Positions 2,931 to 23,554 of a DNA stretch of 40,000 nucleotides are shown here, piece by piece (position 1 is the stretch's first letter; the number at the start of each line of letters is the position of its first letter). The notes under the pieces are model-generated. The model had not been told where the DNA came from. It did not search any database and saw only the letters and a program-made list of their open reading frames with translations. Both the position numbers and the translations under genes were made by a program. The stretch is from Myxacorys californica WJT36-NPBG1 (GTDB taxonomy: Bacteria; Cyanobacteriota; Cyanobacteriia; Leptolyngbyales; Leptolyngbyaceae), in the NCBI GenBank assembly GCA_019359315.1, contig JAHHHO010000021.1, positions 18,078-58,077 of the forward strand, written 5' to 3'.

Positions 2931-3018
2931 ACCCGCCCCAACCATCGGTATCCCACTCACAACACGCTGTTTTGCCTTCGGTACTGACGGTTTTGGGACT
3001 CAATACTGGTCAATGCTT

Positions 3019-3387
3019 CCAGATTCTTGAAGAGCACAATAATTGGATAAATTCTATTGCTTTTAGTCCTGATGGTTCAGTGTTTGCAAGCGGTGATATT
3101 GGTCAAACAATAAAGTTATGAGATATGAGAACATTTCAGTGTCTCAGAACTCTGCAAGGAGACAGCCGAGGAACTGCGCCGATCGCTTTTAGCTCTGACA
3201 ATCAAACTTTGGTTAGCGGTGGTGGACACGATGCAACTATTAGGGTAGGAATGTTCAGACAGGAGCGTGTCCAATGGTCCTACGTGCACTTAGACCTTAT
3301 GAGGGTATGAATATCATTGATGTTACAGGATTAACTGAGGCTCAGAAAGCGTCACTAATTGCTTTAGGGGCTATAGAGTCGGAGTGA
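3019..3387 (+). pseudogene. 3' remnant of a WD40-repeat protein gene (nonsense plus 1-nt deletion, 5' end lost to transposon insertion)
   Basis: It reads 'FQILEEHNNWINSIAFSPDGSVFASGDIGQTIKL*DMRTFQCLRTLQG...SGGGHDATIRV', then in another frame '(W)NVQTGACPMVLRALRPYEGMNIIDVTGLTEAQKASLIALGAIESE*'. The TGA at 3119-3121 replaces the Trp of the canonical 'KLWD' blade end. A missing T in the next 'VW' Trp codon (~3250) shifts the frame. The tail 'RPYEGMNI..VTGLTEAQKA.L.ALGA' is the usual C-terminus of cyanobacterial WD40 proteins. Confidence 0.75.
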
Positions 3388-3426
3388 GAGTGGCAGAAGA
3401 GGGCGATCTCTTCTGTCAACATGCTC

Positions 3427-5634
3427 TTATATTAGGGTTTGAAGGATCTCCCTAATAACTCCACTTTTGCCGCGACAGGCTACGGGTAGCACCTGTCCTG
3501 CAAGGGTACTATCTCTTTGGAGTTCAGAGACAATACTGCTAAGGTCGTGTCCCATATACCCGGTAATAACAACAATCAGGTTGCAATTGCTAATTCTGCT
3601 CTGAACATTACTACGGCTAATGTATGCATCACTGGAAGGCGCTACTTCGACAACCTCTTGTATTCGATAAGTTGAAGTTAATTCCCGAATCACTTCGCGT
3701 CGAGTTGCCTCATGCCCACCAACCAATGCCAAACGTAGAGACGAAAGGTCAGGCACAGTCTCTTCGCTGTCCTTAGAGGAATGAGCTTGGATACCAAGCT
3801 TTGTTGCTTCATCTCTGCTCTGTTGCTGGTATTCAATGAGTTGAGGGACGATATCTGGGCTGAGGTAATAAAGAGCACGTTTTAAGTCTTGGAAAAAAGG
3901 CTCTTCGGAACGACCTTGCCGTATAGCGTTATCAATTTCTTCGATCGCAATTCCTTGATACTCATTAGCCAGACTCGAACGTAGTTTTGGCAGAAGAGCA
4001 ATATAGGGTTCAAGCCCTTCCAAAAGTTCAAAGTGCTGTCCACGGTTGATTTGTTGACTTGCAGCAATAGTGCGTAAGTGGGCTAACTCAAGCTCTAGGT
4101 CATCCATCCACTGCTGGTTAGCTAGCCAATCCAGCCAATCGGCATAAGCAATGATGAATTTATCTAATCGATTTACTTGTTTCCAGAGCTTTGCTCGCTC
4201 TTTCAGGATGTCCTCAGCATTGGGTAGAGTAGCAACTCTTGAACCTGCTACCTCAATGCACTCCTCATAGTAACTAACCTCCTGCTCATTAGATATATCG
4301 CCAAAACCTCCCAAAGATGAGAGTGTGGCAATGTTCGCTCTGTCTTCAAGTGACAAATGCTCAGGGGCAATATCTAAAAGAATTAAATAAATTTCTGCTG
4401 CATCTTCAGGATTACCCTCTGTAGACCAAAGACGAGCTAAAGGCAGTAGTATTTCATATTGACGCTCTCCTGCTTGCCAAGCACTCTCTAGAAGCGGTCT
4501 AGCTTGAGATCTTTGCCCCATTGCATAAAGGGCTGCGCCCTTTAAGCCAGCTAAAGTGGAAGGGAGTGTAGCAATCGGTTCTGGTAGAAAGTCAATGACT
4601 TCTTTAAAGCGGCTACCAGATAGCAGGAGTTCTACCTGTCGAACTTTGACAGTATCCTGATCTTTTTCAGTTTTAACAGGAATTGATTGGTACAGTTCTA
4701 AAGCCTTGTCTTCCTCTCCGACTGCTGTATAGGCTGCTGCTAAATCAAGTAAAACAGAAGTTGATTGGGGATGTTTGACCTTCAATGCCTCTAGCTGAGG
4801 AATACGCTCTCCAGGTTCCACCTTCACTAATTGAGCCAGTTGCTCACTAAGAGTAGCATCGGCTACTTGTTCCATAGGCTCTTGCGGCTTGAGCGCCTGG
4901 TGCAGGAGCCGCCGTACTCCATCGGCCTGACGAATACGCTCCAATTCAGGTAGAAACTCTTGAGCGATTTGCTGGGCTGAAAGCATCAACTCTGGCATAT
5001 TTTCTTGCTGAGCCTCTTGCAGGTAGGCAGAGACAATCTGTTCAACCAACCTTCCAGAGACAGGTAAGGCTAAAATTTCATCGCGCTTGGTTGAACAAAG
5101 TTCGATGATTTGAGCTGCTTTAGCGGTACGAGTGTAAAGGGTAATCAAAGCACGCAAAGCATTGCCGTCACCAGAACTCGATTGCTGAAGTAATCGTTCT
5201 TCCGCTTCTACGATTTGCCCTTGGCTAATTTGTTGCTCTAAACGGCTTGGATTAATGCTTTGTACAGTACTGGTTGGCCGTGGAATATCCTCATTAAGTT
5301 GTTTGAGAATGTTGCGAAATTGAGTTTGCCAGGATTTGAACGTTTGAACTGCTTTTGCTGATTGTTCGGAGTAGTCAGCTTCTACCTTAGAAGTATTGAG
5401 AAGATAGGCTGCTTCAATGGATGACCACGTTTGCCTTAGATTTTCCTCAGTAGTGGTGACGTAGACGAAATGGGTGTACTCTCCATGATGGGAGGGCATT
5501 AATTTAGTAGCCTTGAATTGTTCCCGAATTGCCCGGTGTAACTCCTCTGCCTGTAGCTCACTAATGCATTTAAGGCGTAATCCTATCTGGTCAGCACCTC
5601 CAAGTTTTGGAACAATCTCATACTGAAATTTCAT
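3427..5634 (-). CDS. Large helical-repeat (TPR-like) protein with a C-terminal DUF2325-like domain; last gene of the helicase-PLD operon
   Basis: 735 aa. The centre has TPR-like helical repeats (e.g. 'AAAYTAVGEEDKALELYQS', 'GAALYAMGQRSQARPLLESAWQ', 'PEDAAEIYLILLDIAP'). The C-terminal ~100 aa 'LRLALVGGHEATRREV...CNLIVVITGYMGHDLSS...ACRGKSGV' resemble DUF2325. Its start overlaps the upstream PLD gene stop by 4 nt (5631-5634). Confidence 0.55.
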   Translation of the reverse strand: MKFQYEIVPKLGGADQIGLRLKCISELQAEELHRAIREQFKATKLMPSHHGEYTHFVYVTTTEENLRQTWSSIEAAYLLNTSKVEADYSEQSAKAVQTFKSWQTQFRNILKQLNEDIPRPTSTVQSINPSRLEQQISQGQIVEAEERLLQQSSSGDGNALRALITLYTRTAKAAQIIELCSTKRDEILALPVSGRLVEQIVSAYLQEAQQENMPELMLSAQQIAQEFLPELERIRQADGVRRLLHQALKPQEPMEQVADATLSEQLAQLVKVEPGERIPQLEALKVKHPQSTSVLLDLAAAYTAVGEEDKALELYQSIPVKTEKDQDTVKVRQVELLLSGSRFKEVIDFLPEPIATLPSTLAGLKGAALYAMGQRSQARPLLESAWQAGERQYEILLPLARLWSTEGNPEDAAEIYLILLDIAPEHLSLEDRANIATLSSLGGFGDISNEQEVSYYEECIEVAGSRVATLPNAEDILKERAKLWKQVNRLDKFIIAYADWLDWLANQQWMDDLELELAHLRTIAASQQINRGQHFELLEGLEPYIALLPKLRSSLANEYQGIAIEEIDNAIRQGRSEEPFFQDLKRALYYLSPDIVPQLIEYQQQSRDEATKLGIQAHSSKDSEETVPDLSSLRLALVGGHEATRREVIRELTSTYRIQEVVEVAPSSDAYISRSNVQSRISNCNLIVVITGYMGHDLSSIVSELQRDSTLAGQVLPVACRGKSGVIREILQTLI

Positions 5635-6182
5635 GACAGTTGCATCGCCTGTTCAAAATGTTGCACACAGATTTGTCGTAGCTCGGCGATACTCCGTTCA
5701 TCATGGCAGTAGGTATATAATTCAGCGTTTTGATTAACTCCGCCATCAGTCAGGTTCAAAGAGCCATCGAGCCCACCATAACGACCCACGTAAGCTTTGG
5801 CATGCAATGTAGATAGAACCCGCACTTGAATGCGATCGCTGCGACTAGCCAGCAGTTTCAACGCAGAGTGATAATCTGTATCGCTGCCAACGGTAATGTA
5901 GATTCTTCCACCGTTTGCCGAGATTTGATGGAGTACGTCAAACAAGTGCAGCGAATCCTGCTTAGTCTCCACAACCTCCTGGAATGAGACATAGTAGGGA
6001 TTAGCTAGCCGGAAGTTTGTAACCCAAGGCGCAACAATCCAAAATTCATAGTCACCTCCCAGCTGAGAGGCAAGCACCTCGTTCAGCAGGAAGTTGTAAA
6101 TCATTGCTTGACCACTACGTTGTAGGGTCGATCGCTTTGCCATAGGATAGACCTCACTCAATAGGACGTACAGTAACTTCAA
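5631..6182 (-). CDS. PLD-superfamily (Nuc/DrmC/DpdK-like) nuclease
   Basis: Single HKD-type motif 'LHAKAYVGRYGGLDGSLNLTDGG' (HxK ... GSxN). The likely true start is ATG at 6143 ('MAKRSTLQ'), 10 nt after the helicase stop at 6154-6156 and preceded by GAGG. Confidence 0.7.
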   Translation of the reverse strand: MKLLYVLLSEVYPMAKRSTLQRSGQAMIYNFLLNEVLASQLGGDYEFWIVAPWVTNFRLANPYYVSFQEVVETKQDSLHLFDVLHQISANGGRIYITVGSDTDYHSALKLLASRSDRIQVRVLSTLHAKAYVGRYGGLDGSLNLTDGGVNQNAELYTYCHDERSIAELRQICVQHFEQAMQLS

Positions 6183-9100
6183 TGATGGGCGGCTGATTAA
6201 CCGTCAGGTCAGTTGGATAAATGGTTTGAATATCAGTGATCATGGGATAGACCATACCCAAATCTGTGTCGATTCCAGCATCGGTTAGGTAACTGATCGC
6301 CGCACAAAGAGAGGAGAGGCGATCGCTAGGGACACGGAGGTAAACTGCCTGATACCCTTTCTCCAGCAAGAGTCGAATCTGCTCAGAGATAGGAGTGGGT
6401 GATACTGTTGGGTCACCGATACCATCATCCAAGTTCAAGGTTTGGTTAGAGCGGGCTTGAGTTAGCCAGTCGCTGAGTAGAGAACGGTTCAGGAGATTAC
6501 GACTCAGTCCAGGAGCTTCAATATCGCCGCCCCGATCATCCAGACAACTTGGGCAGCTACAACGGCAATTTATCAGCATCCGTCGTTCTACGGCTGATTC
6601 AAATGCTCGACGTACTTCTGCTGTGTTCGAGTTGTATTCAAGTCTATACAAACGAAGCAAACGGGTGAGTTCAGGATAGGGTGATGAAGTATCTGGCTGA
6701 CTTAGAGCAGATGCAATTGTGCGATAGAGGGTAGCTCTTGCTTCCGCAAAGGATGGCTCACGACCAAATTGCTGAGTGCAGGTAGGAAGAAAAACTTGAT
6801 TAATTTCTCTGAAAATACACCAGTTTATCAGGCGACTCCCGTCAATTTGCTGAGCGTAGTCAGGGATAAAGACCCTGAGTAATGCTTTCAGATGTTTCTG
6901 CTGAACAATAACCTGCATTCGCTGGCGGACTTCAGACAATAATGCCTCGATCGCAACTTGGCGATCGCTAGAACTGCGAGATTGAATCAGCGCATCAACC
7001 AGTACCTCACATTGGGCTAGCCAGTCTTCGGGTTGAGCCAATAGATGACGAAGAAACGCTTCTTCCTGGGCAGTGGGGCAATAGGTCATTCGGTGCGCCA
7101 GAGTTGTCCAGAAACGGTCTGGGTTCTTCCGAAGCAGGTCTTGAGTTGCCCGCATTACCCCAATACCACCCATACCAATTTCATAAAGCCAGATACGATT
7201 GTCAGTCCGGTTATCAAAGTCAAGCCGCAGTCTAGTCCAAGCAGAAACGTAATTTAGAGCCTCGACCCCTGCGACCTCCTGGGCAACTTGCTTCAAAGCC
7301 TGAGTCAGGCTGTACTGGAAACTATCATAAAGATAGTCCTGGTAAAGATCCCCGTTGGTTTGTATCTCCTCATAAAGATCCAGAAAGACTGCCAAATAAT
7401 TATTAGGGCTGGTAATCAGTTGCAGAACGGCTTCACGTTTCTTCGGCGACAACTGGTGGATTTCATTAATGGCTTGAATAGATCGGCGGTTAAACTCGTT
7501 GTTGCCTGCAACAAACCAGGCTCGCATCCCTTCTAGAGTGCCTCCTTGTTGGTGACACCAACCATCTGCAACGGTTAGAAGGACATCTGCTAAGTTTTCC
7601 GCAGCAAAATAGTTTTCCCTATACTCATCCTCAATAGTCAATTTCGTGATAAAAGCGTGGCGAATTGCATTACTCCGAAAATTGGCGCGAGTAGAAAATG
7701 AGAGTATGGCATCTGAGATAGCATCGGGTTTGATTTCAACACTGATACCTTCAGTAATGAGTTGATACCCCAATGCACAGTTACTCATATTATTCTCATT
7801 AGCTGTAAAGCCAACAACCCCTCTGATGTCGTCTGCTCTCGACTCATGGAATTTCAACGTATACTGGCTACCGAGAATGATGCGACGAACATCCAAGAGA
7901 TTCAAGTTATCCGGTTCATCGCTATACAACACAATTTCCTGAACTAAATTTTCCCCAAGACTGTCACATGAGACGGATTGATTGCTTGTTTTAAGTGTGT
8001 ATTTAGCTGTTGGGGTATCACCTATAGGTCGGACATAGATGGCACTGATGGACTGTGCTGAGCAGGAGTGAGCTAGTTGAACCATATCCTGCGGCGCATC
8101 TTGTTGGCTACGGCATTCACTCAATTCTCCTGTATCAGGATTGCAGTACCAGAACGAAGAGTTGTAATCCCGGCTGAACTGTTTGGGTTCAATTTGAGTA
8201 GGACGATAAACTGTCAAAAATTTTCCACTGCGAGGCGTAATCCCAACTAACTTGAGTGCTCGTTTAGGCAGATTAGCAGTGCTTGGATTATTCTCAATCT
8301 GGTCTTTTGCAGTGTAGTACTGGTTCAGAGGTAGCAGAGACTGCCCATCCGCAAGAAGAGGTGGTATCCATGTCGAGCCTTCGCCACCCCGAAAGGTTAC
8401 ATTACCAGGGATCGTCTCACTGATAGCCAAACTAATACTCTCTGGATCAAGCCGTTTGTTGAAGCGGTGATCATCAGGGCGATAGTCTACCCGAACTTCT
8501 GGCAGATTGATGTCTGAGAATAGATTATCAGGCAGATGTTGAGTTAGCCTCTCACGCGCCTTAACCATTGGCTTGTTCTCTCGATCAAATTCTGGATGTA
8601 CTGCTGTCATCAAGCCTTCGCAAAAGATGCTCCAGAGGAACCCATCTGAGTCAGGATCGCCCAGAACTCTCAGTAAAGCGTCGTTATCAACGATCGCGAA
8701 CGATTCCTGTAAGTAGTCCTTAAAAGCAAACATCATGCCTGCATTGGCTGTTTGGTCTAACAGGTACTGATAACCCTGCCGCGACAGCCTCTCTAGATTG
8801 AGTTCTACACCCGCAAGATTTGCTCGGTAAGCCAACCAATCAAATAGTGCATAGAATCCATGGATTCGTTGAAGATAGCGATTTTGAGCATTGAGAGGCA
8901 GCTTCTGAAATGTGGGATCTGTCAGTACATGCTCGTTGCGAAACAGAAATAAATCTGTTGGTTTATAAGGACTAAGAACTGTAGCTACGATCGGTCGTGT
9001 GCCTACTTTTCGCCCACCTCTTCCCTTACGTTGAACAAAGCTGGCAACATTAGCAGGTGCGGTGTATTGAATAACGCACATGAGTGCTTCATCGTCGTAG

Positions 9101-11142
9101 CCAACTTCTAACGCACTGGTTGTAATGACGAGATCATCATCTTCCTCAATGACAATAGAGCGATCGCTCCCTGACTTGCGCTTGATGTTGAGAGGCTGAC
9201 TACGTGCTTTATCTTTTTGACTCAACACCCACCAGCACTCCCCAGCTTGAAAGAGAGGACAAGTTGGGTCAGGCGTGCAACTATTTTCGCAATTGCAGTT
9301 GTACTGGGTAGTAGGACCAAAAAAGTTAGGAAAGAGTAGGCGGTTAAAGGGTGGGTAACGGTAGGCATATAAGGGAACATACCTGATTGGGTAGGCATCA
9401 TCAGTAGGTCGAATTCCCTGGCTCTTCAATTGTTGCCGTCTCTCAATTTGGTAGTCCTTGACCTTTTCAGCATCTTGCACCTGATACAGCCAACGACCAA
9501 CGATATCCAAAGATTGCACAAAACCGAAGGTACGATAACGATTCAAGCCGCTACCTGCTACCGGCTGCGGCATCGTGTGTAGCACACACATTGCTGTTTG
9601 AATTAACGATGAAAGCACCGCTGTATCTTCGGTATTTTCAGCACGAGCAAAGATAAAACGCTCTGCCCCAATAATCTGCATCTCATTGTCTTGAGGTTTA
9701 ACCTCCTCGATCCGCACTGGGTCAATACCGGAAAGCTCGGATAGGAATTGTTTAGGATGGGCGATCGTCGCACTCAGACCAACAAAGGCAAGATTGGCTT
9801 GTTCTTGGCGATCGCGCTTACCCGTACGAATCCGTGATAGGAGTCGGCGCAGCAGAAGAGCAACTTGAGTTCCTGCTGTGGAAGTTTGCAAGTGAATCTC
9901 GTCCAGCATCACTACAGAAGGCGCGCAGAAGGTTGTAGTCCCGAACAGGTACTGGTACTTTGAAGAGATCAATCGCCGATGAAGAGATTCTGTAGTAGCG
10001 ATCAGAAGATCCGGCGGTTGCTTCTCCATCAAATCCCGAGCAAATTTGATGAAGGGATAAGTCTTTTCACACTTAGGACAGACCAGGACTTCAGGTTGAG
10101 TCGGACGAGCAAGAAGTCGTTGAGGAGTTGTATTGCAGCCACAACCCGGAGTTCCTACACAGTAAGCAAAAGGTGACAGATAGCCCTTATAATCCTCGCT
10201 AAAATTCCAACCTCTTTGCTTAGCAAGTTTTTGTTGCTGAGAGTCATCTACCTTTTGAAAATCACTTACTTGATAAACAGCCGCTCCGCTTTCCACACCT
10301 ATGGTAATTGCAGGAAGGTTGTTGGCAGCTAGTACTTGGTTTAGATGATAGAGAACCTCAATAAAATCTGTAAGTTGGTTTTCTGAGAGAGCAACTCGTG
10401 GGTAAATACAGATTGCTTTGACTCCAATCTTTTTCCGAAGACAGCGCTCAATAACCATTTTGGCTAGCACTGGAAGGAAAAAGGCGTAGGTTTTCCCAGC
10501 TCCTGTACTAGCAGTAACAACAACCCCCCTCTCAATACCCTGTTGTGAATCTAGTTCGATCGCCTGCAAAATAGCCCTGAGTGTTCGACGTTGAAAACCA
10601 CTCATCTGCTGCAGTTTTGTTAGGGTCTGCTCAATGACTGTTAACAGAAGATTAGCAGCCTGCTGTTGTTCTGAATTGCCGGAGAGTAATAGCCCCATGC
10701 ACGTCCGGACAGAGACATTGCGTCGTGGAACCCGGCGAGAGGCAACGCTAAACTTTACATCTTCTATAAGTCGCTTACTTTTACTGATACGATGGGCGAC
10801 TTTAACAGGGTTTTCGTTAACGATACGTTGACGCAGCTTGGTTAAGAGCCGAACTGTCTCTGTAATCCGGCTTCGAAAAATCCAGTTCTCAGGCGATTCC
10901 TCATGATCAAATCGAATAATTTGAAGCTCATTAGCAAGTTTTTGTAGAGCTTGAATAACTGCTGAGTTTTTCTCTCCTACTGATAACTGAATATCATTAG
11001 ATGGCTGGAAGTTTTGAACAACTTCACTTCCTGTCAATGTCAAATCGTAGATGCCATAAGCGATTTGCTCAGCCTCGCGCTGTTCAATGAATGTAAGAAC
11101 CTCATCAGCTAGATTTCCTACAGTTTTTATATCTAAGCTCAT
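6154..11142 (-). CDS. Giant SF2 DExH helicase with a C-terminal DUF1998/MrfA-type zinc-binding Cys cluster (DrmA+DrmB / DruE / DpdJ-like)
   Basis: 1662 aa. Motif I 'TASTGAGKTYAF', motif II 'MLDEIH', motif III 'LSATI', motif VI 'FVQRKGRGGRK'. A Cys cluster 'CRCSCPSCLDD' lies about 150 aa from the C-terminus, where DUF1998 proteins carry theirs. Confidence 0.8.
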   Translation of the reverse strand: MSLDIKTVGNLADEVLTFIEQREAEQIAYGIYDLTLTGSEVVQNFQPSNDIQLSVGEKNSAVIQALQKLANELQIIRFDHEESPENWIFRSRITETVRLLTKLRQRIVNENPVKVAHRISKSKRLIEDVKFSVASRRVPRRNVSVRTCMGLLLSGNSEQQQAANLLLTVIEQTLTKLQQMSGFQRRTLRAILQAIELDSQQGIERGVVVTASTGAGKTYAFFLPVLAKMVIERCLRKKIGVKAICIYPRVALSENQLTDFIEVLYHLNQVLAANNLPAITIGVESGAAVYQVSDFQKVDDSQQQKLAKQRGWNFSEDYKGYLSPFAYCVGTPGCGCNTTPQRLLARPTQPEVLVCPKCEKTYPFIKFARDLMEKQPPDLLIATTESLHRRLISSKYQYLFGTTTFCAPSVVMLDEIHLQTSTAGTQVALLLRRLLSRIRTGKRDRQEQANLAFVGLSATIAHPKQFLSELSGIDPVRIEEVKPQDNEMQIIGAERFIFARAENTEDTAVLSSLIQTAMCVLHTMPQPVAGSGLNRYRTFGFVQSLDIVGRWLYQVQDAEKVKDYQIERRQQLKSQGIRPTDDAYPIRYVPLYAYRYPPFNRLLFPNFFGPTTQYNCNCENSCTPDPTCPLFQAGECWWVLSQKDKARSQPLNIKRKSGSDRSIVIEEDDDLVITTSALEVGYDDEALMCVIQYTAPANVASFVQRKGRGGRKVGTRPIVATVLSPYKPTDLFLFRNEHVLTDPTFQKLPLNAQNRYLQRIHGFYALFDWLAYRANLAGVELNLERLSRQGYQYLLDQTANAGMMFAFKDYLQESFAIVDNDALLRVLGDPDSDGFLWSIFCEGLMTAVHPEFDRENKPMVKARERLTQHLPDNLFSDINLPEVRVDYRPDDHRFNKRLDPESISLAISETIPGNVTFRGGEGSTWIPPLLADGQSLLPLNQYYTAKDQIENNPSTANLPKRALKLVGITPRSGKFLTVYRPTQIEPKQFSRDYNSSFWYCNPDTGELSECRSQQDAPQDMVQLAHSCSAQSISAIYVRPIGDTPTAKYTLKTSNQSVSCDSLGENLVQEIVLYSDEPDNLNLLDVRRIILGSQYTLKFHESRADDIRGVVGFTANENNMSNCALGYQLITEGISVEIKPDAISDAILSFSTRANFRSNAIRHAFITKLTIEDEYRENYFAAENLADVLLTVADGWCHQQGGTLEGMRAWFVAGNNEFNRRSIQAINEIHQLSPKKREAVLQLITSPNNYLAVFLDLYEEIQTNGDLYQDYLYDSFQYSLTQALKQVAQEVAGVEALNYVSAWTRLRLDFDNRTDNRIWLYEIGMGGIGVMRATQDLLRKNPDRFWTTLAHRMTYCPTAQEEAFLRHLLAQPEDWLAQCEVLVDALIQSRSSSDRQVAIEALLSEVRQRMQVIVQQKHLKALLRVFIPDYAQQIDGSRLINWCIFREINQVFLPTCTQQFGREPSFAEARATLYRTIASALSQPDTSSPYPELTRLLRLYRLEYNSNTAEVRRAFESAVERRMLINCRCSCPSCLDDRGGDIEAPGLSRNLLNRSLLSDWLTQARSNQTLNLDDGIGDPTVSPTPISEQIRLLLEKGYQAVYLRVPSDRLSSLCAAISYLTDAGIDTDLGMVYPMITDIQTIYPTDLTVNQPPIIEVTVRPIE

Positions 11143-11275
11143 AGAATCATTTATATTAATGCAGCGATTTGGATAACATCAAAATCAGGATATTTATACA
11201 TGAGCATTGAAATTTCAAGATTAGAGTTGTCTGACTTAAAGAAGTTAAAACACCCTCGACAAATAATGCGATCAG

Positions 11276-12361
11276 CTAAGGATATCTCAGTTTGACTCCC
11301 TTTCCACCATTTGGAGTATTGCAATCCCAACGAAGATCACAAATTGCACAATCCTTTTCACTAATATCACCGGGTATAGCTGATTGCCAGTTTCCAGTAA
11401 CACGTGCTTGCTCAATCTGCATTACGGTCTTAGCAAATTCAATTACTGCATTATCAATTTCAGTTGGAAGAATACTAACTTCAATAAGAGCATTTACTGG
11501 TTGCTTTGAGGGACATGTAGGACCATCTAACTCGTTTAGAAAATACAGAATTGCTCTCCGTGGTAAAACTCCATGTTTAAGTTCATACAACTTGGCATAA
11601 ACTCTCATTTGGAACTCATAATTTTCTAGATCCTTAGGATTTAAGCCAACCCTTGTACTACCTTTGTAGTCCCACATTTCGTAGTCCTCGGGAACTCCAG
11701 CTGAAGTCGTAGGGTCCACAAGCAAATCAACTACACCATGCAAAATATGATTAGTTCTATCTGCCTGCAACCTATGTTCTGTGTCTATGACTCGTGGATA
11801 AAGAACTGGTCCTTCTAATGCATTGAAATACTGGAGAATTCGTACAACTTGCAACCGATTATCCGATTTAATGGCTCGAATTCCTCTACTCTTTAAGCCA
11901 TTTTCTACCTCAACAAAATATTTGACAATATCACTTGGAGGTGTAGGAGGAGCAGTACTCAATTTTTCAGCAATTCTTAGTTCATCAAAATAATCAAGAA
12001 TATCTTGATCACCAAGGATTTTGCCATTATCAGGTAGTAAACCCTTTGTTGCAGGATCAATAATACCGTGAAAATGAGAATGGCAACGGTCTAAAACTTG
12101 GTGCAGAGTAGTCCCAAAATATGTTTGTGTTTGGTAAGCAGGAGCATATTTGTGTACGTTAAAAGTTCCATACTGACGGGCACACCGCCGAAACGGAACA
12201 ATATCTTGCGTAATGCTATACCGCCGTTTCACTGGTGGAGTAGTTGGCAAAGGGACGGAGATACCACTGAATGGTTTTTTCATGATCAGTAATTGTTGAG
12301 TTCTATATGGCAACAGTATTTCGTCGGAATTCAACGTGGTCACGACCAGGAACCGGAACAC
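11276..12361 (-). CDS. PD-(D/E)XK nuclease with Cas4/AddB-like 1+3 cysteine arrangement
   Basis: 'HGVVDLLVD...MWDYKGS' gives a D...(D/E)xK core. One upstream Cys ('FRRCARQY') plus the C-terminal 'CAICDLRWDC' match the Fe-S pattern of Cas4/AddB nucleases. The probable real start is ATG at 12283 ('MKKPFSG'), 20 nt after the UvrD stop. The 12361 start would overlap UvrD by 59 nt. Confidence 0.65.
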   Translation of the reverse strand: MFRFLVVTTLNSDEILLPYRTQQLLIMKKPFSGISVPLPTTPPVKRRYSITQDIVPFRRCARQYGTFNVHKYAPAYQTQTYFGTTLHQVLDRCHSHFHGIIDPATKGLLPDNGKILGDQDILDYFDELRIAEKLSTAPPTPPSDIVKYFVEVENGLKSRGIRAIKSDNRLQVVRILQYFNALEGPVLYPRVIDTEHRLQADRTNHILHGVVDLLVDPTTSAGVPEDYEMWDYKGSTRVGLNPKDLENYEFQMRVYAKLYELKHGVLPRRAILYFLNELDGPTCPSKQPVNALIEVSILPTEIDNAVIEFAKTVMQIEQARVTGNWQSAIPGDISEKDCAICDLRWDCNTPNGGKGVKLRYP

Positions 12362-14582
12362 GCTTTAAATTTTTCTTACTATTGACTTGATCAGGCGTAG
12401 CCACCAAAATTAAGCCATTCTTGGCACGTGAATAAGCAACGTACAAAAGCCGAATAGTATCTTCTATGACAAGTAATTCTGGATCTCTTACATTTCTTGG
12501 GTATAATCCTTGTCTAAAATTTGCTAAATCTGTCTCAAGAATTTGTGCTGACCCAATTCTTCCACTATCTCCTAGCTGAGCAACAAGAACAAAGGGGAAT
12601 TCTAAACCCTTTGCTTGATGAATAGTCATTATCGGAAGATATCCCTGAGGAACAATTACATCCTCATCTTCATCGTCATCAATTCCTGTCTCAATAAGGT
12701 AACTTACAAACATATCATAGAAACGATAGAGAAATGTTGGATCTACATCAATTCCAGACTTATTTCTCCGTAAGCTATCTAAACTCATGCTGTGGTAGCC
12801 CTCAAAAAGACGAGTGACTTTAGATAATCTTAAATTCCTTGATGGGTCTTGACGCCACAAAGAGAAAGGCTCTCTTGAGAGAATCCGATAGATAATTTCT
12901 AGTAGATTAAGACCAATGAAAGTTTGCGTGCTTGCCGCGCATATTTTGGGTAATTCTACGTTACTACTGCATATGTAATCTTCAAGGAGGGCTGTTGGTA
13001 TTGTGGGATCATTCAAGACACTTCGAAGAGTATTTAACCAATCTTGAATAGGTTTAACCCATAATCGAGACTCACCTTTTTGATCCTTATAAGATGCAAA
13101 AGAATGTTTTTTATCAATAATTTCTACTAGTGCTGCAAGTAAGCATTGAACCTCCTCACTCTCCATAAATGACTTTGAGCGTGGATTATAAATAGGAATA
13201 TTGTTCTCTTTAAACGCTGTAATAAATGGACCTGCATTACCCGGCGAATCTTGAGTACTGCGTAGTAATAGAACACATTGACTTAAATCAGCAATAACAT
13301 TGTCAGCTACCAGGTGATCTCTAATTAACTGAACAACAGCCTCAGGCAAATCTTCTGCTTTCTTTCGAGTTAACCAGGTAACAGCAGGATAATTACCTTG
13401 AATAGAAGATGCAGGCTCTACTAAATCTTTGCCAGGAGCGCGAACTCCTGGAGCAGCCATTTCAGAAAAAGATGTTATGTAATTATTAAAAAAATCAACA
13501 ATTCTTGAGTGAGACCGATAGTTACGCTTCAGCTGGATTGGATAGGGTGTTTTGGCAAAAGTAGTTTGACAAGCCTTATCGAAATTAACCATGCAAGCAA
13601 CGTTAGCTCCACGGAAGCGATATAAAGCTTGATCATCATCACCAACGACAGTAATGTTATGAGGCTGTTTATGAGAAAGCGCAAGATAAATTCGCTCTTG
13701 AATAGGATTGGTATCTTGATACTCATCAACCAGAACATGCTGCAGTGGCACTTGATTCAAACCATCACCATCTAAAAAACGCTTTCCCCCAGATGAGGTA
13801 AGAAATTCCAGAAATCGAGCTTGCAGATGTGCAAAGTCGCAACGATAGTTATCCTGCAGGGCTTCAATGTATTGTTGATAAAACTTTACTAAAGTCGCCC
13901 AATGCCCTCCAGCCTGGAGCATCTTCGTCAAATCAATACAGTCATCAACAATATGGTTGAACAAGACAACGGCTGCTTTTACACGCTTCCACTTACTAGG
14001 TGAGAATTTGGCGTTCTGATGCCATTTAGGTACTGCGTGATGGAAGTATCTCCAAAAATCCAGATTCTTGTATTCTGAAATATCTGCAGTACGGTAAGTG
14101 AAAAGATCCTGCTCTACTTTGTCAAGTAAACGAACATTTTGATAGGGAGGATAACGATATTCCTGAAGAATATCATTGCAGAGGCTGTGAAGGGTTCCTA
14201 TTCTTATATCTGACAAATCTACATTTTTAAGGCTAGAATCAAAAGCCTGAAGAACACTTAGATAGCTTGACAAACGATCTTCTAGATTTTGTGCTGCGGG
14301 TTTAGTAAATGTAGTGAGTGCTATAGAACGAGGCGCTACACCGTTTACACAAAGTAGTTTTAAGGTTCGTGTAACTAAGACTTCACTTTTACCAGAACCT
14401 GGACCAGCAAGAAGCCATAAGGGTCCCCCGCTATACTCAACTGCCTCTTTCTGTTTCGAGTCTAAATCGTAGCCTCGAGCACTTTGTTGAGCAAGACATG
14501 TGTGAAAAGTAATTAAGTCTATCATTGAAATATGTAGCTTTTGCGACTGTTTTTTCTGAAGCGTTACGTTTGCAGGAAGCAA
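12303..14582 (-). CDS. UvrD/Rep/PcrA-type SF1 helicase (copy 1)
   Basis: 'LLAGPGSGKSEVL' (Walker A), 'VLVDEYQDTNPIQ', 'VVGDDDQALYRFRGA', 'RNYRSHSRIV', 'MTIHQAKGLEFPFV', 'LLYVAYSRAKNGLILV'. Confidence 0.85.
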   Translation of the reverse strand: MLPANVTLQKKQSQKLHISMIDLITFHTCLAQQSARGYDLDSKQKEAVEYSGGPLWLLAGPGSGKSEVLVTRTLKLLCVNGVAPRSIALTTFTKPAAQNLEDRLSSYLSVLQAFDSSLKNVDLSDIRIGTLHSLCNDILQEYRYPPYQNVRLLDKVEQDLFTYRTADISEYKNLDFWRYFHHAVPKWHQNAKFSPSKWKRVKAAVVLFNHIVDDCIDLTKMLQAGGHWATLVKFYQQYIEALQDNYRCDFAHLQARFLEFLTSSGGKRFLDGDGLNQVPLQHVLVDEYQDTNPIQERIYLALSHKQPHNITVVGDDDQALYRFRGANVACMVNFDKACQTTFAKTPYPIQLKRNYRSHSRIVDFFNNYITSFSEMAAPGVRAPGKDLVEPASSIQGNYPAVTWLTRKKAEDLPEAVVQLIRDHLVADNVIADLSQCVLLLRSTQDSPGNAGPFITAFKENNIPIYNPRSKSFMESEEVQCLLAALVEIIDKKHSFASYKDQKGESRLWVKPIQDWLNTLRSVLNDPTIPTALLEDYICSSNVELPKICAASTQTFIGLNLLEIIYRILSREPFSLWRQDPSRNLRLSKVTRLFEGYHSMSLDSLRRNKSGIDVDPTFLYRFYDMFVSYLIETGIDDDEDEDVIVPQGYLPIMTIHQAKGLEFPFVLVAQLGDSGRIGSAQILETDLANFRQGLYPRNVRDPELLVIEDTIRLLYVAYSRAKNGLILVATPDQVNSKKNLKRVPVPGRDHVEFRRNTVAI

Positions 14583-14623
14583 TGCTCAGATTTTTGAAGG
14601 GGCTGCTATTTTTTGGCTTTGCT

Positions 14624-14860
14624 CTAACTAATCTCTCGTCTACCCATTCGTTTACGAGATTTCTTTCGGTGCTCTAATAACTCATCTAGTAATTCAGATT
14701 GCTTATCAAGCTCCTCCCAGTCCCTAATGAAGCGTTTTAGAGCAACGTTGACCATGTCTTGGGTCGTGGGAGCAGCACTTTGATACTGCTGTTCCAGAGG
14801 CAGCCTAATTTTGCGTAATGTTTCATAAAGGTCATCCGGCACACGGACTGTTGATGGCAA
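14624..14860 (-). CDS. Small ribbon-helix-helix (CopG/Arc-like) DNA-binding protein, first gene of the minus-strand operon
   Basis: 78 aa with a TTG start. The N-terminal 'STVRVPDDLYETLRKI...' has the strand-helix pattern of RHH proteins, followed by a basic tail. It sits next to the divergent promoter region. Confidence 0.45.
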   Translation of the reverse strand: MPSTVRVPDDLYETLRKIRLPLEQQYQSAAPTTQDMVNVALKRFIRDWEELDKQSELLDELLEHRKKSRKRMGRREIS

Positions 14861-14979
14861 GGGGAAGTTACCTGAGTTAGGGACTTCCGCATTTTATTCG
14901 TCTTGACAAAAGCTTTGCTACCATGTATGCAAGCATACAGGTTTGGAAATATAGTATTTTACTTTGAGAGGAAAATTGC
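14861..14979. promoter_or_regulatory. Divergent promoter region between the RHH-UvrD-nuclease operon and the DGQHR-UvrD operon, with a 7-2-7 palindrome
   Basis: Perfect inverted repeat TGTATGC-AA-GCATACA at 14924-14939. TTGACA at 14903-14908 sits 17 nt upstream of TATGCA (plus strand). TATAGT at about 14950-14955. TAAAAT on the minus strand at 14891-14896. GAGAGGAAA lies just upstream of the ATG at 14980. Confidence 0.35.
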
Positions 14980-16074
14980 ATGGAGCTTGTACTCCCCGCT
15001 GTAGCAGTTCGACGCGGTCCCGAAGGGAATCAAATCAGTTACGTAGCGAGCTTTACATTTGGTGACATTGCTCGGTTACTAGATGATGGACGGCTGTACG
15101 TGCCGAACCAACCTGACCTACCTGACTTTGCTCAACGGAAACCGAATCCTGTTCGGATTAAAGCGATCGCCCAATACATCCTGGAAACCTACAGGGAAGG
15201 CACAACCTTCTTCCCTCCAATCTGCGTCAACGTACAACCACCGCCAACCTATCGAAACGGAAACGTCTACTTGCCTTATCACTCAGTAACGTTGCGCTTG
15301 ACTGACGGGCAACACCGTTGCTTTGGCATACGCCAAGCCATCCAGGACATTCAAACCCAAGATCTCATGAACCTTGGAATGCTCTCAAACCTGGAGTTGG
15401 GTGCTTTACTCTACTCTGGGCTACGTCTTGACTTGGAGCGTCAGGCATTCCGGGATCAAAACTTACTAGCACAAAGGCCAGGAACCTCTTTAGCCTATTT
15501 GTTCGACAAGCGATCGCCTAGTGTCCTAATTGCGAAGAGCTTAATGGAGCGAGTTGCTCAGTTTCAGGGCAACGTCGAAACCATTGAAAACGGGTTAGGT
15601 CAGCACAATCCCAAGCTAATGACCCTGTCTACATTAGTTATGGCAACACAGCATATGTTTCCAAACTTACGGTCAAAAAAGGATTTAGAAGAACGTACCG
15701 ACTGGGCTGTAGCATTCTGGATCGCTGCAGGAAGCAACTTCTTCAATGAACTCTGGGCACTAACAAGTGTGCAGGAGCGCAAACGTCAGCGTGAGCAGTC
15801 GGTAGCTGTGAGTGCTATCGTATTTCAGGCATTAGGCTTATTGGCACGGGATTTGTATCTGGAGGGAGTTTCAGGGGAAGATCTGCACAAGTGGTTAGTG
15901 AAACTAGGTGAGATAGACTGGCGACGCGAGAACAATTTCTGGTTAGAGCGAGGAGTGACGCAGGTAGGGGCACAGGGCAACCCAATTTTGCCTAACACGA
16001 GAACTACTATTGATGCTTGTCATCGTGTACTTCGTGAATTTGTAGGCATCATTCCACTTTCCTCCACTTGTTAG
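14980..16074 (+). CDS. dpdB: DGQHR-domain protein (DpdB/DndB-like, ParB/Srx-fold)
   Basis: Exact DGQHR signature in 'VTLRLTDGQHRCFGIRQAI'. At 364 aa it matches DpdB/DndB in size. The symbol is tentative. Confidence 0.7.
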   Translation: MELVLPAVAVRRGPEGNQISYVASFTFGDIARLLDDGRLYVPNQPDLPDFAQRKPNPVRIKAIAQYILETYREGTTFFPPICVNVQPPPTYRNGNVYLPYHSVTLRLTDGQHRCFGIRQAIQDIQTQDLMNLGMLSNLELGALLYSGLRLDLERQAFRDQNLLAQRPGTSLAYLFDKRSPSVLIAKSLMERVAQFQGNVETIENGLGQHNPKLMTLSTLVMATQHMFPNLRSKKDLEERTDWAVAFWIAAGSNFFNELWALTSVQERKRQREQSVAVSAIVFQALGLLARDLYLEGVSGEDLHKWLVKLGEIDWRRENNFWLERGVTQVGAQGNPILPNTRTTIDACHRVLREFVGIIPLSSTC

Positions 16075-20509: not shown

Positions 20510-21498
20510 AGCCTTTATATTTTCTTCCATGGTGGCCATCTGACTATATTTGGAAGGAGTGGAACACTTCATTTGATATGGGTAGGATGACCGGATGGAC
20601 GAAGACATATTTGTGGGAAGTACTACCTAATCTAATTGATGGAATTGTTGTGTCTCGAATGGCTGTTTCTCTGAGACAAATCAAGTTACTTCGGCAAAAA
20701 CTTCGCTTTACCGGAGTAATTTTAGGAGACTCTGGAGCGCATTCTTATCGAAATTATGAGCACCCCCCATTTTCATGTGAAGATGTCTTAGAGTTTTATG
20801 CTCAGGGAGATTTTACCTATGGTTTAACCGTTGATATGGTTGCTTCTCCTTGGGTGCGTCCAGGAGGTTTGTCAGACGACGAATTGCAGAGTAGATTAGC
20901 GCTAACCATCAATAATGCTGAACGCTGTTTAGAGCTACATGAAAGGTATAATTATCCATTTACTTTATGGGGGGTTGTACAAGGTTGGGATGTCACAAGC
21001 TATCGATCGTGTGCTAAAGCTTTGCTCAAACTTGGGTTTACTTATTTGGCGATCGCGGGTCAACGGAAGCTCTCTTTAATCAGGGATGCAATAGATGCTG
21101 TTTCAGAAGAAGCACATCAACTTGGCAAGAAGATAAACATTCATGTATTAGGAACAGGAAATCCTAAAATTCTTGAGTTCTATATCCAAAAAGGCATTAC
21201 TTCATTTGATTCATCAACCTGGTTACGTAAAGCTTGGCTGAGTGAAAAGCATAATTACTTTCTTGTAACCGGAAAACATTATGATGCTTATCGAGCAACA
21301 AGAGTTGGATTAGGGGAATTTGATGTAAACAAGTTGAAATGGGATATAGAAATCAACTGCTCTTGCTATTTCTGTCGGAGTCTAGGACAACAAATTCTAT
21401 TATTTAGAGGACATGAAAGAAATACTCGAAGAGGGTTCCATAATATCTGCCAGTATGTTCAATTGCTCAAAGCACACCGGAAAGATGCTTTAGTCTAG
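20494..21498 (+). CDS. TGT/DpdA-like transglycosylase paralogue (short form, with Zn Cys cluster)
   Basis: 'LYFLPWW' (cf. 'YYIPEWDD' of the fusion protein), 'VILGDSGAHSY', 'WGVVQGWD', 'YLAIAGQ', 'GITSFDSSTWLRKAW', and the C-terminal 'CSCYFCRS...RGHERNTRRGFHN' (CxCxxC...H). Confidence 0.65.
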   Translation: MDINLKPLYFLPWWPSDYIWKEWNTSFDMGRMTGWTKTYLWEVLPNLIDGIVVSRMAVSLRQIKLLRQKLRFTGVILGDSGAHSYRNYEHPPFSCEDVLEFYAQGDFTYGLTVDMVASPWVRPGGLSDDELQSRLALTINNAERCLELHERYNYPFTLWGVVQGWDVTSYRSCAKALLKLGFTYLAIAGQRKLSLIRDAIDAVSEEAHQLGKKINIHVLGTGNPKILEFYIQKGITSFDSSTWLRKAWLSEKHNYFLVTGKHYDAYRATRVGLGEFDVNKLKWDIEINCSCYFCRSLGQQILLFRGHERNTRRGFHNICQYVQLLKAHRKDALV

Positions 21499-23554
21499 AC
21501 AGTTGTTCAGAACCTTGGTCAAGGTTCTCTTCTAGAAGAGCTTTGAACCGCTTATAGAAAACATAGGTATTGTGAAAACCTCGCCTACGGTTGCGATCGT
21601 TATTTCTAAAAATGACTGTTTCAATGCCCAATTCTTGACATATTAGGCACTTACATGAATTCCAAGGCTTTTCTTTAAGTATTTCTAGATAGAAAGGTTC
21701 AAGATCTATAGACTTCTTTGAATCAGTTTTGTTTTCTTGCTCTTCGATCAGCTTGCTGTAGGTCAGTACTGTTTTTAGTGTGGTTTCCAAATCCAGTGTT
21801 CCTACATCAAATTGTCTTAAAGCGTCCAGTGCTTCTTGTTCATATCTCTTAAAAGTTTCTAAATCGACAGAACCACTTTCAAGAGCACGCTTTATTTTTA
21901 ATCCTCGCTCTGTTGGGGGGACTCTGATAGCCATGAAAGTTTTGCTCGATAGAGTGTGATAGTTTTTTGTACCAGATAACCATGCTTGTCTCAGTGGACT
22001 TGCTGAGTCAAAACTCGTAACTCCCAAATGCCGAAATACTGGAATTGCCTCAATCCGAGCAACCCCAAACAAATGCAACCGCACATTTGGTTTGAGATGG
22101 GGAGAAATTGCCTTCAGGATTGGTACAATCTCCTTTGTTTGTGCACGAGCTAATCCACCTAGTGCCACATAGTCATATCCCATGCCAATTACTTCTTTCA
22201 CAGCATTGGCATAGGACTCTGGGTTCCACCCTTGAGCCACACCCATTGGAGTAAACGTATATCCTAATTCTCGATGCTTCTTGATAAAGTCTTCAGCATT
22301 CTTCAGCGTAATTTCGTACCGTTTTTCCCGTTCGCCTGGTTGAGCAAAGGGACCCACAATCAGATGGTCAATACTCACTCCATAGTTAAATCCCAAATTT
22401 TCGTAATACTCTAAAATTTCATCGGTATTGTATGGGGGCACTTCTTCCTTGATGTAACCAAATGCTCCACAATCTCCCATGATTTGCCCCGGAAACCGGA
22501 TGAAATTGTGGATTCCACCTGCTGCTTCCACCCGTGCCCGTTTTGTTTTGCTCTCATCAACCACGACTTTAGAGACTAAAATTCCGTCGTAGTTCGGTGA
22601 TGGATAAATCTCGTGAGCATAGATGTCATTATAGGGATCTCGACCTGGCGTGAGAGTATCGGTAAGAAAGCCATAGTTTGGATCTACGCGATCGTCCCAC
22701 TCTGGAATGTAATATTGCATTCCCAAGTGAACATTAGGTGCTGGCGGGCAGGGAGGAATGGCTAAATAGTCCTCCGTTTGGGGCTTAATAACTTGTTTAG
22801 AAGCCTTTTTAGCCGAAGGGATGGACAACCCCAATGTCAACTCTAACTGGGTCTCCTGCTGGTCGATCACTTTCTGAAAGACAGTTGGCTCCTCATAAAC
22901 CGTTTTTAATAATTCAGCGTCCTTACAGACTGCTTCTGCAAATCGTTTGAACAGAAATCCCTTTAACCCAACCAACCCATAGCGATAACGTTTTGCATCA
23001 GTATTGGACAACGGCAATATAAAAGTCTTCGCTGCTAAAGTCCTGATAAATCGAGTACTACTGTTAGATGCCAAAAATACTAACGTCTGGTCTGGTCTGG
23101 TTTCGACAGGCAGTGTCAGCGATCGTAGATAGTTCTCTCCTAGCAGTAAGAAAATGAGGTTATAAGGGGTGATCGCTTTCTCAAACGTACTATGCAAGTC
23201 GAGGGATCGTGCCCAATCATCTACTTCATTTACCCTCATGTTATTGAAGGTGACCTCATAAGGCGCGATCGCCCAGTTCTCCTCAATTAGCCCATACCCT
23301 GCTGACAAAATCGCGACATCAACTGCATCTTGCCCTAAAGCCTGGCGCAACAGTTGCACACCCTCCATCAGTCGAAGGTGCTGCATCCCTGTGTACATTT
23401 TTCCAGCGGTACAAAGAAACTCAGCCAATTCTGCTTCCCGTCGCTGAAGATGTTCAGGATCTTTGAAGTCTGCTAGGGTCAGTTGATTCTCAGGCTTAGC
23501 ACATTTTTCTCCAGTGCAGGATGTAACAACAAGAACACTAGGGTGGGGCATCAA
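21467..23554 (-). CDS. dpdA: DUF6884-like N-terminal domain fused to a DpdA-type DNA-guanine transglycosylase
   Basis: 695 aa. The N-terminus has '[11 protein letters not shown]...MYTGMQH...[22 protein letters not shown]', a DUF6884-like pattern. The C-terminal ~420 aa have '[16 protein letters not shown]', '[10 protein letters not shown]', 'MGVAQGWN', 'YVALGGLA', '[15 protein letters not shown]' and 'CKCLICQE...[13 protein letters not shown]'. Its start overlaps the queC stop by 4 nt (23551-23554). Confidence 0.75.

Follow-up and report, generated by a model that had tools for sequence, protein, structure and literature searches.

A gene trio encoding DpdJ-like, DpdK-like and TPR/DUF2325-like proteins as the probable restriction arm of a compact Dpd-type island in cyanobacteria

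In canonical Dpd systems, which are based on 7-deazaguanine, DpdA, DpdB and DpdC modify the DNA and DpdD to DpdK restrict (PMC10164549, PMC5699537, PMC5567051). According to the preprint text of Bell et al. (2025; bioRxiv 10.1101/2025.09.15.676423), the helicase DpdJ contains an OB-CON-DUF1998 canopy with helical insertions and a C-terminal ALBA-like domain. One clause of the same text mentions 'deeper-branching Dpd-like systems', which its main text leaves without a name and without details on operon, partner genes or taxa. Here, a 40,000-nucleotide stretch of the cyanobacterium Myxacorys californica WJT36-NPBG1 (contig JAHHHO010000021.1, positions 18,078 to 58,077; hereafter the window) was analyzed, and three adjacent genes in it were compared with these systems. 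They encode a DpdJ-like helicase (J'), a DpdK-like predicted nuclease (K') and a protein with tetratricopeptide repeats (TPR) and a DUF2325-like end. This trio probably acts as the restriction arm within a compact Dpd-type (7-deazaguanine) restriction-modification island, found on mobile DNA in cyanobacteria. This reading is based on the DpdJ and DpdK family scores, the fold matches of the C-terminal half of J', the link of the third protein to DpdD, the conserved motifs, the linkage to DndB-family genes, DpdA and canonical Dpd blocks, the content of the window, the presence of its layout on a conjugative plasmid and the purifying selection on the trio.

The trio was found to consist of three complete open reading frames (ORFs) on the minus strand, at 3427-11142 of the window, with exactly the limits given in an initial annotation made from the letters of this DNA. 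The stop codon of J' (TGA) is separated by 10 nt from the ATG of K' at 6143, and the stop codon of K' and the start of the TPR gene share an ATGA overlap, both as annotated initially; the three genes are translationally coupled and strictly syntenic. Compared to the closest relative, all three genes were shown to be under purifying selection (dN/dS 0.13, 0.07, and 0.19). Because the same gene order recurs in about 30 loci of Cyanobacteria and Chloroflexota and dN/dS is only 0.07-0.19, the trio is not a chance arrangement. The window trio showed 95-96% identity to copies from other samples. A promoter and terminator scan of 2800-15100 gave a site count no higher than in shuffled sequences.

For J', the DExH helicase motifs I, II, III and VI and the CRCSCPSC cluster noted initially were all confirmed, with motif I as GAGKT (residues 214-218), II as DEIH (414-417), III as SAT (457-459), VI as QRKGRGGR (704-711), and the cluster at residues 1526-1533. 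The helicase motifs were invariant across the family, an SF2 RecA1/RecA2 core was recognized, and Pfam matched DEAD, Helicase_C and ResIII. In PADLOC, J' matched DpdJ with an E-value of 5.2e-160, whereas the matches to DrmA (1.9e-22), DruE (7e-17) and BrxH were far weaker and covered the helicase core only. The initial designation of the trio as a DISARM/Druantia-like core is therefore appropriate at superfamily level only. A profile built from four J' sequences was aligned by hhalign with one built from 17 canonical DpdJ proteins (probability 100%, E 3e-112, J' residues 7-1424). Since this alignment spans 1240 columns, J' is best read as a full-length DpdJ paralogue, which is more than a related helicase core. 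Homologues of J' fell into tiers, with at least 48% identity in Cyanobacteria and Chloroflexales, 40-43% in a Chloroflexi clade, 28-31% in a mixed clade and 25-29% for named DpdJ proteins. Two further cysteine-rich segments were seen in J'. One (residues 327-358), a CxC...CPxC Zn ribbon within RecA1, has also been reported in canonical DpdJ; the other (residues 615-636; NCNCENSC...TCP...GEC) lies before RecA2, where canonical DpdJ had no aligned residues in the profile alignment.

The CRCSCPSC cluster had been taken initially as a sign of a DUF1998 region. At the profile level this did not hold, as Pfam DUF1998 (MZB) gave no match in full-length J' (E<=0.01) or in its last 351 aa (E<=10). A search of PDB sequences with the J' profile gave helicase-core matches only, including YprA 6znp. 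The fold matches and the conservation of the cluster, on the other hand, were in favor of the assignment. An AlphaFold model of J' residues 740-1662 (pLDDT 86, pTM 0.84) was compared to the PDB with Foldseek, and its best specific matches were DrmB of the DrmAB complex (7s9v_B; E 4e-3, probability 0.99) and the DUF1998 helicase MrfA (6znp_A; E 1.5e-2, probability 1.0). The last about 100 residues matched ALBA DNA/RNA-binding proteins (probability 0.96-1.0, target TM-score up to 0.76). For the C-terminal half, none of the matches reached an E-value of 1e-3, TM-scores were 0.17-0.26, and an unrelated SecDF chain ranked second by E-value (probability 0.30), so that the fold comparison lends weak support to an OB/CON/DUF1998 canopy after RecA2. 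Going by the best specific fold matches, the C-terminal half of J' would consist of an OB/CON/DUF1998-like module, in which the CxxxCPxC cluster is retained, and an ALBA-like domain at the end, in agreement with the DpdJ architecture outlined in the preprint text cited above. In the alignment, C1526, C1530, and C1533 (C-x3-C-P-x-C-L) were kept in J' and also in the clades of 42% and 30% identity; these are three conserved candidate zinc ligands, and C1528 is variable across the family. The segment was absent from all four canonical DpdJ proteins aligned. This pattern agrees with the preprint text. The J' clade thus appears to keep an ancestral DUF1998-type cysteine (zinc) cluster that has been lost in canonical DpdJ.

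In K', the motifs H114-A-K116 and G127-S-L-N were found, in agreement with the phospholipase D (PLD) motif of the initial annotation. The Pfam PLDc_2 match was just above its cutoff (27.3 vs. 27 bits), and PADLOC showed DpdK at 1.1e-23 and DrmC at 5.9e-4. The motif spacing is the same as that of canonical DpdK, H-x-K-x4-(D)-x5-G-S-x-N; the His, Lys, Gly-Ser, and Asn are invariant in the K' family, and the motif Asp is replaced by Arg or His throughout. K' is a paralogue of DpdK in which the catalytic His, Lys, and GSxN are preserved. In Nuc/BfiI-type PLD nucleases, the active site is built by a dimer. By analogy with these enzymes, K' would have to dimerize to form its active site, because each 170-aa chain contains one HKD motif.

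The third gene had been described initially as encoding a helical-repeat protein with a DUF2325-like C-terminus, and this was confirmed. Pfam TPR_19 matched at 1.4e-10, and a separate scan of the C-terminal 103 aa gave a sub-threshold score for DUF2325 (E 3.9e-4; 21 bits, cutoff 33.6). An AlphaFold model (pLDDT 83.9) showed a small N-terminal domain of alpha/beta type (residues 1-78), an alpha-solenoid (80-612) and a four-stranded alpha/beta C-terminal domain (634-734). Foldseek comparison of this model to the PDB gave generic TPR proteins only (OGT, SPINDLY, APC/C), and a PDB sequence search with the profile of the DUF2325-like domain gave no meaningful match. The family comprises about 72 clusters at 90% identity, mostly from cyanobacteria and nearly all of about 730-745 aa. 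When 1.84 billion representatives were searched exhaustively with the profile, 1986 proteins were obtained at E<=1e-3, most of which match the C-terminal domain only; these relatives share the motifs VGGH, TGYxxH, and CRGKSG, occur in many architectures and have sub-threshold DUF2325 scores.

This partner had not been recognized initially from DISARM, Druantia or Dpd, but it has a counterpart: canonical DpdD contains the same C-terminal domain and follows DpdK in cyanobacterial clusters. Canonical DpdD showed a weak DUF2325 match at its C-terminus, and several DpdD homologues have a precomputed PF10087 (DUF2325) domain beside PF28109. The profile of the C-terminal domain aligned with the extreme C-terminus of DpdD (probability 82%, E 1.1e-5), also when a diverse DpdD alignment was used (probability 90%, E 2e-6). 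PADLOC gave no match on the 735-aa protein, DpdD models included, and PF28109, present in all DpdD homologues, was not among the precomputed domains of the 72 family members. Since canonical J-K-D and J'-K'-TPR match in gene order and sizes and the C-terminal domains align, the third gene is best regarded as a positional and C-terminal-domain counterpart of DpdD, and not as a member of the DpdD family proper. No mention of DUF2325 in a defence context was found in the literature searched.

Relatives with other architectures were also observed. P0211 (724 aa; L043 673-2847, on a 3.2-kb contig) has an N-terminal YaaA/DUF6884-type (DpdC-like) domain joined to a TPR/DUF2325 portion, which matches profile positions 292-731 at 4e-72; a link of the partner protein to modification chemistry through this fusion is possible. 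Four proteins of about 1100 aa (P0267, P0293, P0313, and P0319) are STAND-type NTPases (AAA_16/NB-ARC) with TPR arrays and a C-terminal DUF2325-like domain, which suggests an output or sensor role for the domain in other conflict systems.

When genomes were scanned with the J' alignment, 33 loci from Cyanobacteria and Chloroflexota were obtained, and their gene neighborhoods were compared by tblastn and by clustering of all ORFs; 21 non-redundant cyanobacterial loci were used for counts, with neighbors scored within 10 kb. Wherever a contig extends far enough, J' was shown to be followed by K' and the TPR gene, even where the identity of the TPR protein falls to 35%. In all 21 cyanobacterial loci, a divergently oriented DndB-family gene is found shortly upstream of J', and in most of them a conserved ORF of about 80-100 aa is located in between. 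Beyond the DndB gene, DpdA fused to DUF6884 and a conserved 305-aa protein were found in 9 of the 21 loci; in 10 others, a canonical Dpd block (DpdH-DpdI-DpdJ-DpdK-DpdD) was found instead, with scores in related cyanobacterial loci of 1740 bits for DpdJ, 197 bits for DpdK and 4e-84 for DpdD. In L016, DpdE, DpdF, and DpdG are also present upstream. Thus, 10 loci (L007, L012, L016, L020, L023, L025-L028, and L038) contain two paralogous arms, DpdJ-DpdK-DpdD and J'-K'-TPR, around one DndB gene. Because both coexist in these loci, the two arms are paralogues and not orthologous replacements. A NACHT NTPase is often located between the two arms. Within the 42%-identity Chloroflexi clade, the trio is kept in L040 and L044, and in L044 DpdA (393 bits) directly follows it; the 30% clade has other partners.

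The layout of the window, spanning 14 kb, was also found on the conjugative plasmid AP018264.1 (plasmid1) of Scytonema sp. NIES-4073, where the cassette is located at about 136.0-152.3 kb, in the order tgt, 305-aa gene, DGQHR, small ORF, PcrA, PD-(D/E)XK nuclease, J', K', and TPR, followed by an integrase; the trio is annotated there as hypothetical proteins. An integrase, an insertion sequence (IS) and a TnsD-like gene, besides the plasmid, are the signs of mobility near trio loci. A 104-aa MazG-family pyrophosphohydrolase gene overlaps and follows the TPR gene in L001 (12189-12503), L002, L014, and L025; the window does not have this gene, and downstream of its TPR gene an ISL3 element is located instead. 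A scan of IMG/VR with the TPR family gave no viral contig.

The content of the window fits with the initial proposal of a restriction arm paired with 7-deazaguanine base exchange instead of a methylase, which we consider very probable: DpdA, a DndB-family gene, queC, queD, and queE are all present (Table 1), and no methyltransferase domain was found among the scanned ORFs of the window, a few short or overlapping ORFs being outside the scan. The DUF6884-DpdA product scored 485 bits with the NCBIfam DpdA model NF041059, over the cutoff of 200, and 2.8e-130 with PADLOC DpdA; at its N-terminus, PADLOC DpdC matched residues 9-111 only (6.5e-8) and Pfam DUF6884 at 2.7e-9. The DndB-family product scored over the cutoff of NCBIfam DGQHR (94.7 bits), and the models matching it were DndB/DGQHR only, none of them specific for DpdB. 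For DpdD to DpdI, no PADLOC match was obtained among window ORFs from 1176 to 28495, and the same models detect these proteins in related loci.

Table 1. Features of the window, with positions, strand and supporting evidence.
Feature	Position	Strand	Evidence
J', DpdJ-like YprA-family SF2 helicase, 1662 aa	6154..11142	-	PADLOC, NCBIfam, hhalign, fold model
K', DpdK-like single-HKD PLD-family nuclease (predicted), 170 aa	5631..6143	-	PADLOC, NCBIfam, motif alignment
TPR/DUF2325-like partner protein at DpdD position, 735 aa	3427..5634	-	Pfam, fold model, profile alignment
PD-(D/E)XK nuclease, accessory	11276..12361	-	Pfam PDDEXK_1 9.9e-10
UvrD/PcrA-like SF1 helicase, accessory, paired with PD-(D/E)XK gene	12303..14582	-	Pfam UvrD-helicase 1.8e-51
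Conserved small ORF, 78 aa, heading the operon between DndB gene and J'	14624..14860	-	tblastn E 1e-20 to 1e-33
DndB-family DGQHR protein, presumed DpdB equivalent, divergent from J' operon	14980..16074	+	Pfam DndB 6.4e-74
Conserved protein, remotely TGT/DpdA-like, 305 aa	18392..19309	-	hhalign vs. DpdA alignment: probability 92%, E 5e-7
Protein without family match, 393 aa	19328-20509	+	also in L008, L036, L037
Second DpdA-like/TGT gene, 334 aa	20494-21498	+	PADLOC DpdA 4.7e-54
DUF6884 (DpdC-like N-terminal domain) fused to DpdA DNA-guanine transglycosylase	21467..23554	-	NF041059, PADLOC, Pfam
queC (preQ0 gene), two ORFs	23829-24817	-	Pfam QueC 2.3e-21 and 1.2e-22 on two halves
queE (preQ0 gene)	24832-25272	-	Pfam Radical_SAM 2.1e-8
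queD (preQ0 gene)	25284-25673	-	Pfam PTPS 1.2e-30
TnsD/TniQ gene	25813-27762	-	Pfam TnsD 1.3e-122
ISL3 transposase	1176-2837	-	
IrrE/M78 peptidase-like gene	11-706	+	
SLH-domain beta-helix protein	30450-32297	-	
Protein with EndoU nuclease domain, 1280 aa	33185-37027	-	

Compared to canonical Dpd (Salmonella Montevideo DpdA-K), the trio shows the same kind of helicase, with the N-terminal domain, the RecA1 Zn ribbon, an apparent canopy module and an ALBA-like end, a small single-HKD PLD nuclease, and a third protein of similar size (about 750 aa) with a C-terminal DUF2325-like domain. The gene order is that of DpdJ-DpdK-DpdD in cyanobacterial clusters, and in both cases DpdA, preQ0 genes and a gene for a DndB-family protein are linked. 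It differs in that J' and K' are only distantly related to named DpdJ (25-29% identity) and DpdK (23-28%), both under the equivalog cutoffs, in that canonical DpdJ has lost the CxxxCPxC cluster, in that the third protein, a TPR solenoid, does not match PF28109 or the DpdD HMM, and in that DpdE, DpdF, DpdG, DpdH, and DpdI are not in the window. J' fits the one-clause description of deeper-branching Dpd-like systems in the preprint text.

With DISARM, the trio shares a YprA-superfamily helicase with an OB/CON/DUF1998 canopy, for which DrmB was the best PDB fold match, and a PLD partner. However, helicase and canopy are in one polypeptide here and encoded by two genes (DrmA, DrmB) in DISARM, the HMM scores prefer Dpd by more than 130 orders of magnitude, and the window contains no DrmMI/MII methyltransferase, no DrmD or DrmE and no PLD protein with the 4-helix bundle reported for DrmC. 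Druantia is linked through DruE, a distant YprA-family relative, and through two loci with the trio directly upstream of DruB/C/D/E-like genes (see below). The DruE models cover the helicase core only, Dru genes were not found in the window, and in the trio the nuclease is a PLD protein of its own rather than a C-terminal fusion. BRIGADE, in which Dpd-like and ARMADA-like helicases occur together, has in common with the window the combination of 7-deazaguanine genes, YprA-family helicases and a small PLD or PD-(D/E)XK nuclease, but it has been reported in halophilic archaea only and its defining features are ARMADA-like helicases that contain a BrxA-like insert, usually as a pair, together with DpdG/DpdHI, none of which were found in the window. 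The component families are already known and the system is Dpd-like. Undescribed in the literature searched are the J'-K'-TPR/DUF2325 cassette, the retention of the zinc cluster, the coexistence with a canonical block and the use as sole arm in a plasmid-borne island; the nearest description is the single clause in the text of Bell et al. (2025).

If the trio is the restriction arm of such a system, DpdA with its fused DpdC-like domain and the DndB-family ATPase would replace guanine by preQ0 at specific sites of the host DNA, the preQ0 being supplied by QueC, QueD, and QueE. J' would load on DNA and translocate with ATP, the grip being provided by the OB/CON/DUF1998 canopy and the ALBA domain, and a dimer of K', with two chains per active site, would cut DNA that does not carry the mark. 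The TPR/DUF2325 protein in the role of DpdD could serve as an adaptor for assembling or licensing the J'-K' complex, or it could couple J'-K' to the modification state. The upstream UvrD-like helicase and PD-(D/E)XK nuclease would then be optional accessories, possibly for degradation of the cut DNA.

Several points weigh against this reading. The NCBIfam scores are below the equivalog cutoffs, both for DpdJ (NF041067, 521 bits, cutoff 800) and for DpdK (NF041068, 78 bits, cutoff 100). The members of the trio family are known here from sequence and predicted structure, and how canonical Dpd restricts DNA has yet to be explained (PMC10164549). The comparison of the full-length TPR family to DpdD, with a low-diversity and then a diverse alignment, showed nothing significant outside about 70 C-terminal residues, and shorter relatives (600-640 aa; L046-L048), which likewise combine the N-domain, TPR and DUF2325, were found among peptide/sugar transporter and metabolic genes with no defence context; the third protein may be a recruited generic (non-defence) module rather than a DpdD paralogue. 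One of these relatives was observed to be overlapped by a BcrAD_BadFG ATPase gene. In the double-arm islands the two arms cannot be simply redundant, and the data do not give the basis of their difference. Furthermore, queC of the window is split: a three-frame reading showed an N-terminal half followed by unrelated sequence and a stop, with QueC taken up again in a different frame.

Some loci of Chloroflexota point to another explanation, the best surviving one, although we regard it as unlikely: the trio may be an autonomous, portable effector cassette that destroys invading DNA itself and docks beside varied self-marking or sensing modules, with Dpd as partner in cyanobacteria and Druantia-like or other defence genes in Chloroflexales. 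Invading DNA could then be recognized, for instance, by its ends or its structure, which has been proposed for DrmAB. Nine Chloroflexota loci had neither DndB nor DpdA within 10 kb. In two loci that lack Dpd genes, L005 (12166-20726) and L022 (17.7-24.9 kb), DruB-, DruC-, and DruD-like genes (DruD1 7e-23) come after the trio on the same strand, separated by very small gaps, and are succeeded by a DruE-like helicase matching PDB 9wae/9tu7 at 1e-46 to 1e-49; no DruA was seen upstream of the trio in these loci. The trio of L040 is located among NACHT/SIR2/caspase defence genes, and the double-arm cyanobacterial loci already have the full canonical Dpd restriction set. On the other side are the constant DndB adjacency in cyanobacteria, the DpdA gene directly after the trio in L044, and the compact layouts of the plasmid and the window, which have no other restriction arm. 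The view of the Chloroflexota loci extends to +/-10 kb only, so that Dpd genes may sit elsewhere in those genomes. That the trio is self-contained and can be plugged into different upstream immune logics, whether Dpd (sometimes as a second arm), a DruB-E-like set or others, is likewise doubtful, and the restriction arm of a Dpd-type island is preferred.

The presence of two paralogous J-K-D-type arms per island, which could differ or be opposed in specificity, and the 7-deazaguanines carried by many phages (PMC6884629) would also suit a type IV-like arm directed against foreign 7-deazaguanine DNA (phage dG+, dPreQ1, etc.) and not against unmodified DNA. This is improbable, as the trio co-occurs with host genes that place preQ0 in self DNA, contains no recognizable modified-base reader domain and is the sole arm in the window and on the plasmid, where the modification genes would be left with no partner.

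Decay of the window island, with a trio no longer functional there, was judged equally improbable. It is suggested by the split queC, by the ISL3 transposase 590 nt downstream of the trio, by the TnsD-like gene with no TnsABC, and by broken copies elsewhere: in L016 (Aliterella atlantica, 10001-14910) a deletion has fused J' (up to residue 1376) with the middle part of the TPR gene, with loss of K', and in L035 and L037 (Chloroflexales) J' is cut at about residues 1275-1330 by inserted genes. In the window, however, all three ORFs are full length with intact catalytic motifs, the identity to copies in other samples and the low dN/dS values argue against decay, and housekeeping que genes could supply preQ0. 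A DNA-repair module of the MrfA/MrfB (YprA) type, helped by the UvrD and PD-(D/E)XK genes upstream and outside defence, would account for the fold match to MrfA but is very improbable, given that J' is far nearer to DpdJ than to MrfA, that the distribution is patchy and mobile (plasmid; integrase, IS, and TnsD-like gene nearby), that the trio is linked to Dpd genes and that the UvrD/PD-(D/E)XK genes occur in 5 loci only.

In these five loci (L010, L011, L019, L036, and the window), the UvrD and PD-(D/E)XK pair is located between the small ORF and J', and the UvrD of the window showed 67-68% identity to orthologues at the same position in the other four. The 78-aa ORF belongs to a family present in 16 loci and has a basic C-terminus; its product could be a regulator of the J' operon. 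A reading as a ribbon-helix-helix protein was not supported, and a PDB profile search gave no match. A second UvrD-like gene lies next to the DndB-family gene of the window, toward the 305-aa gene. The 305-aa protein follows DpdA in 13 loci; it had no Pfam, PADLOC or NCBIfam match, and a PDB profile search gave nothing meaningful. It aligns with DpdA on the GVxQG...GY.YIALGGL region and contains a TGT-like FIDSGVF motif, and could represent a third, divergent protein of TGT fold in this Dpd variant.

For the 393-aa protein, a PDB sequence search with its profile gave no meaningful match; in the alignment, the invariant P58-D59...E74-x-K76 looks like a PD-(D/E)XK motif. A copy with 38% identity was seen near the trio in a Chloroflexales locus that contains no Dpd genes. 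The 334-aa DpdA-like protein is about 30% identical to the main DpdA, its gene is convergent to it with a 32-nt overlap, and it was found only in the window among the loci examined. Besides the split queC, the 3' end of that gene has no usual Cys motif and queE is short (146 aa); the queC break looks like an insertion or a frameshift, and the preQ0 pathway of the island may be broken.

The que genes are bordered by the TnsD/TniQ gene. A complete Tn7 was considered and rejected, as no TnsA/B/C domain was found to the right of this gene. The island looks like the cargo of a degraded mobile element. At the left end of the window an IrrE/M78 peptidase-like gene is present. To the right of the island are an SLH-domain beta-helix protein and the protein with the EndoU nuclease domain, which is a possible polymorphic toxin.

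The eight proteins DpdD to DpdK have been implicated genetically in Dpd restriction, and none has an assigned role. A bona fide DpdA together with only three Dpd-type restriction genes is a natural minimal system for dissecting the helicase, the nuclease and the DUF2325 partner, and this compact layout is recurrent, under selection and also present on a conjugative plasmid. The comparison shows the DUF2325 domain of DpdD as the conserved element of the third component, and points to a Dpd-like helicase clade in which the ancestral zinc cluster still appears to be present. The islands that combine one DndB gene with two paralogous J-K-D arms raise the question of what the second arm contributes. 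If the trio were a portable cassette, it would be a natural minimal restriction engine and a direct bridge in function between Dpd and Druantia, so far joined by helicase phylogeny only. The trio thus offers a three-gene entry point to the unsolved mechanism of Dpd restriction.

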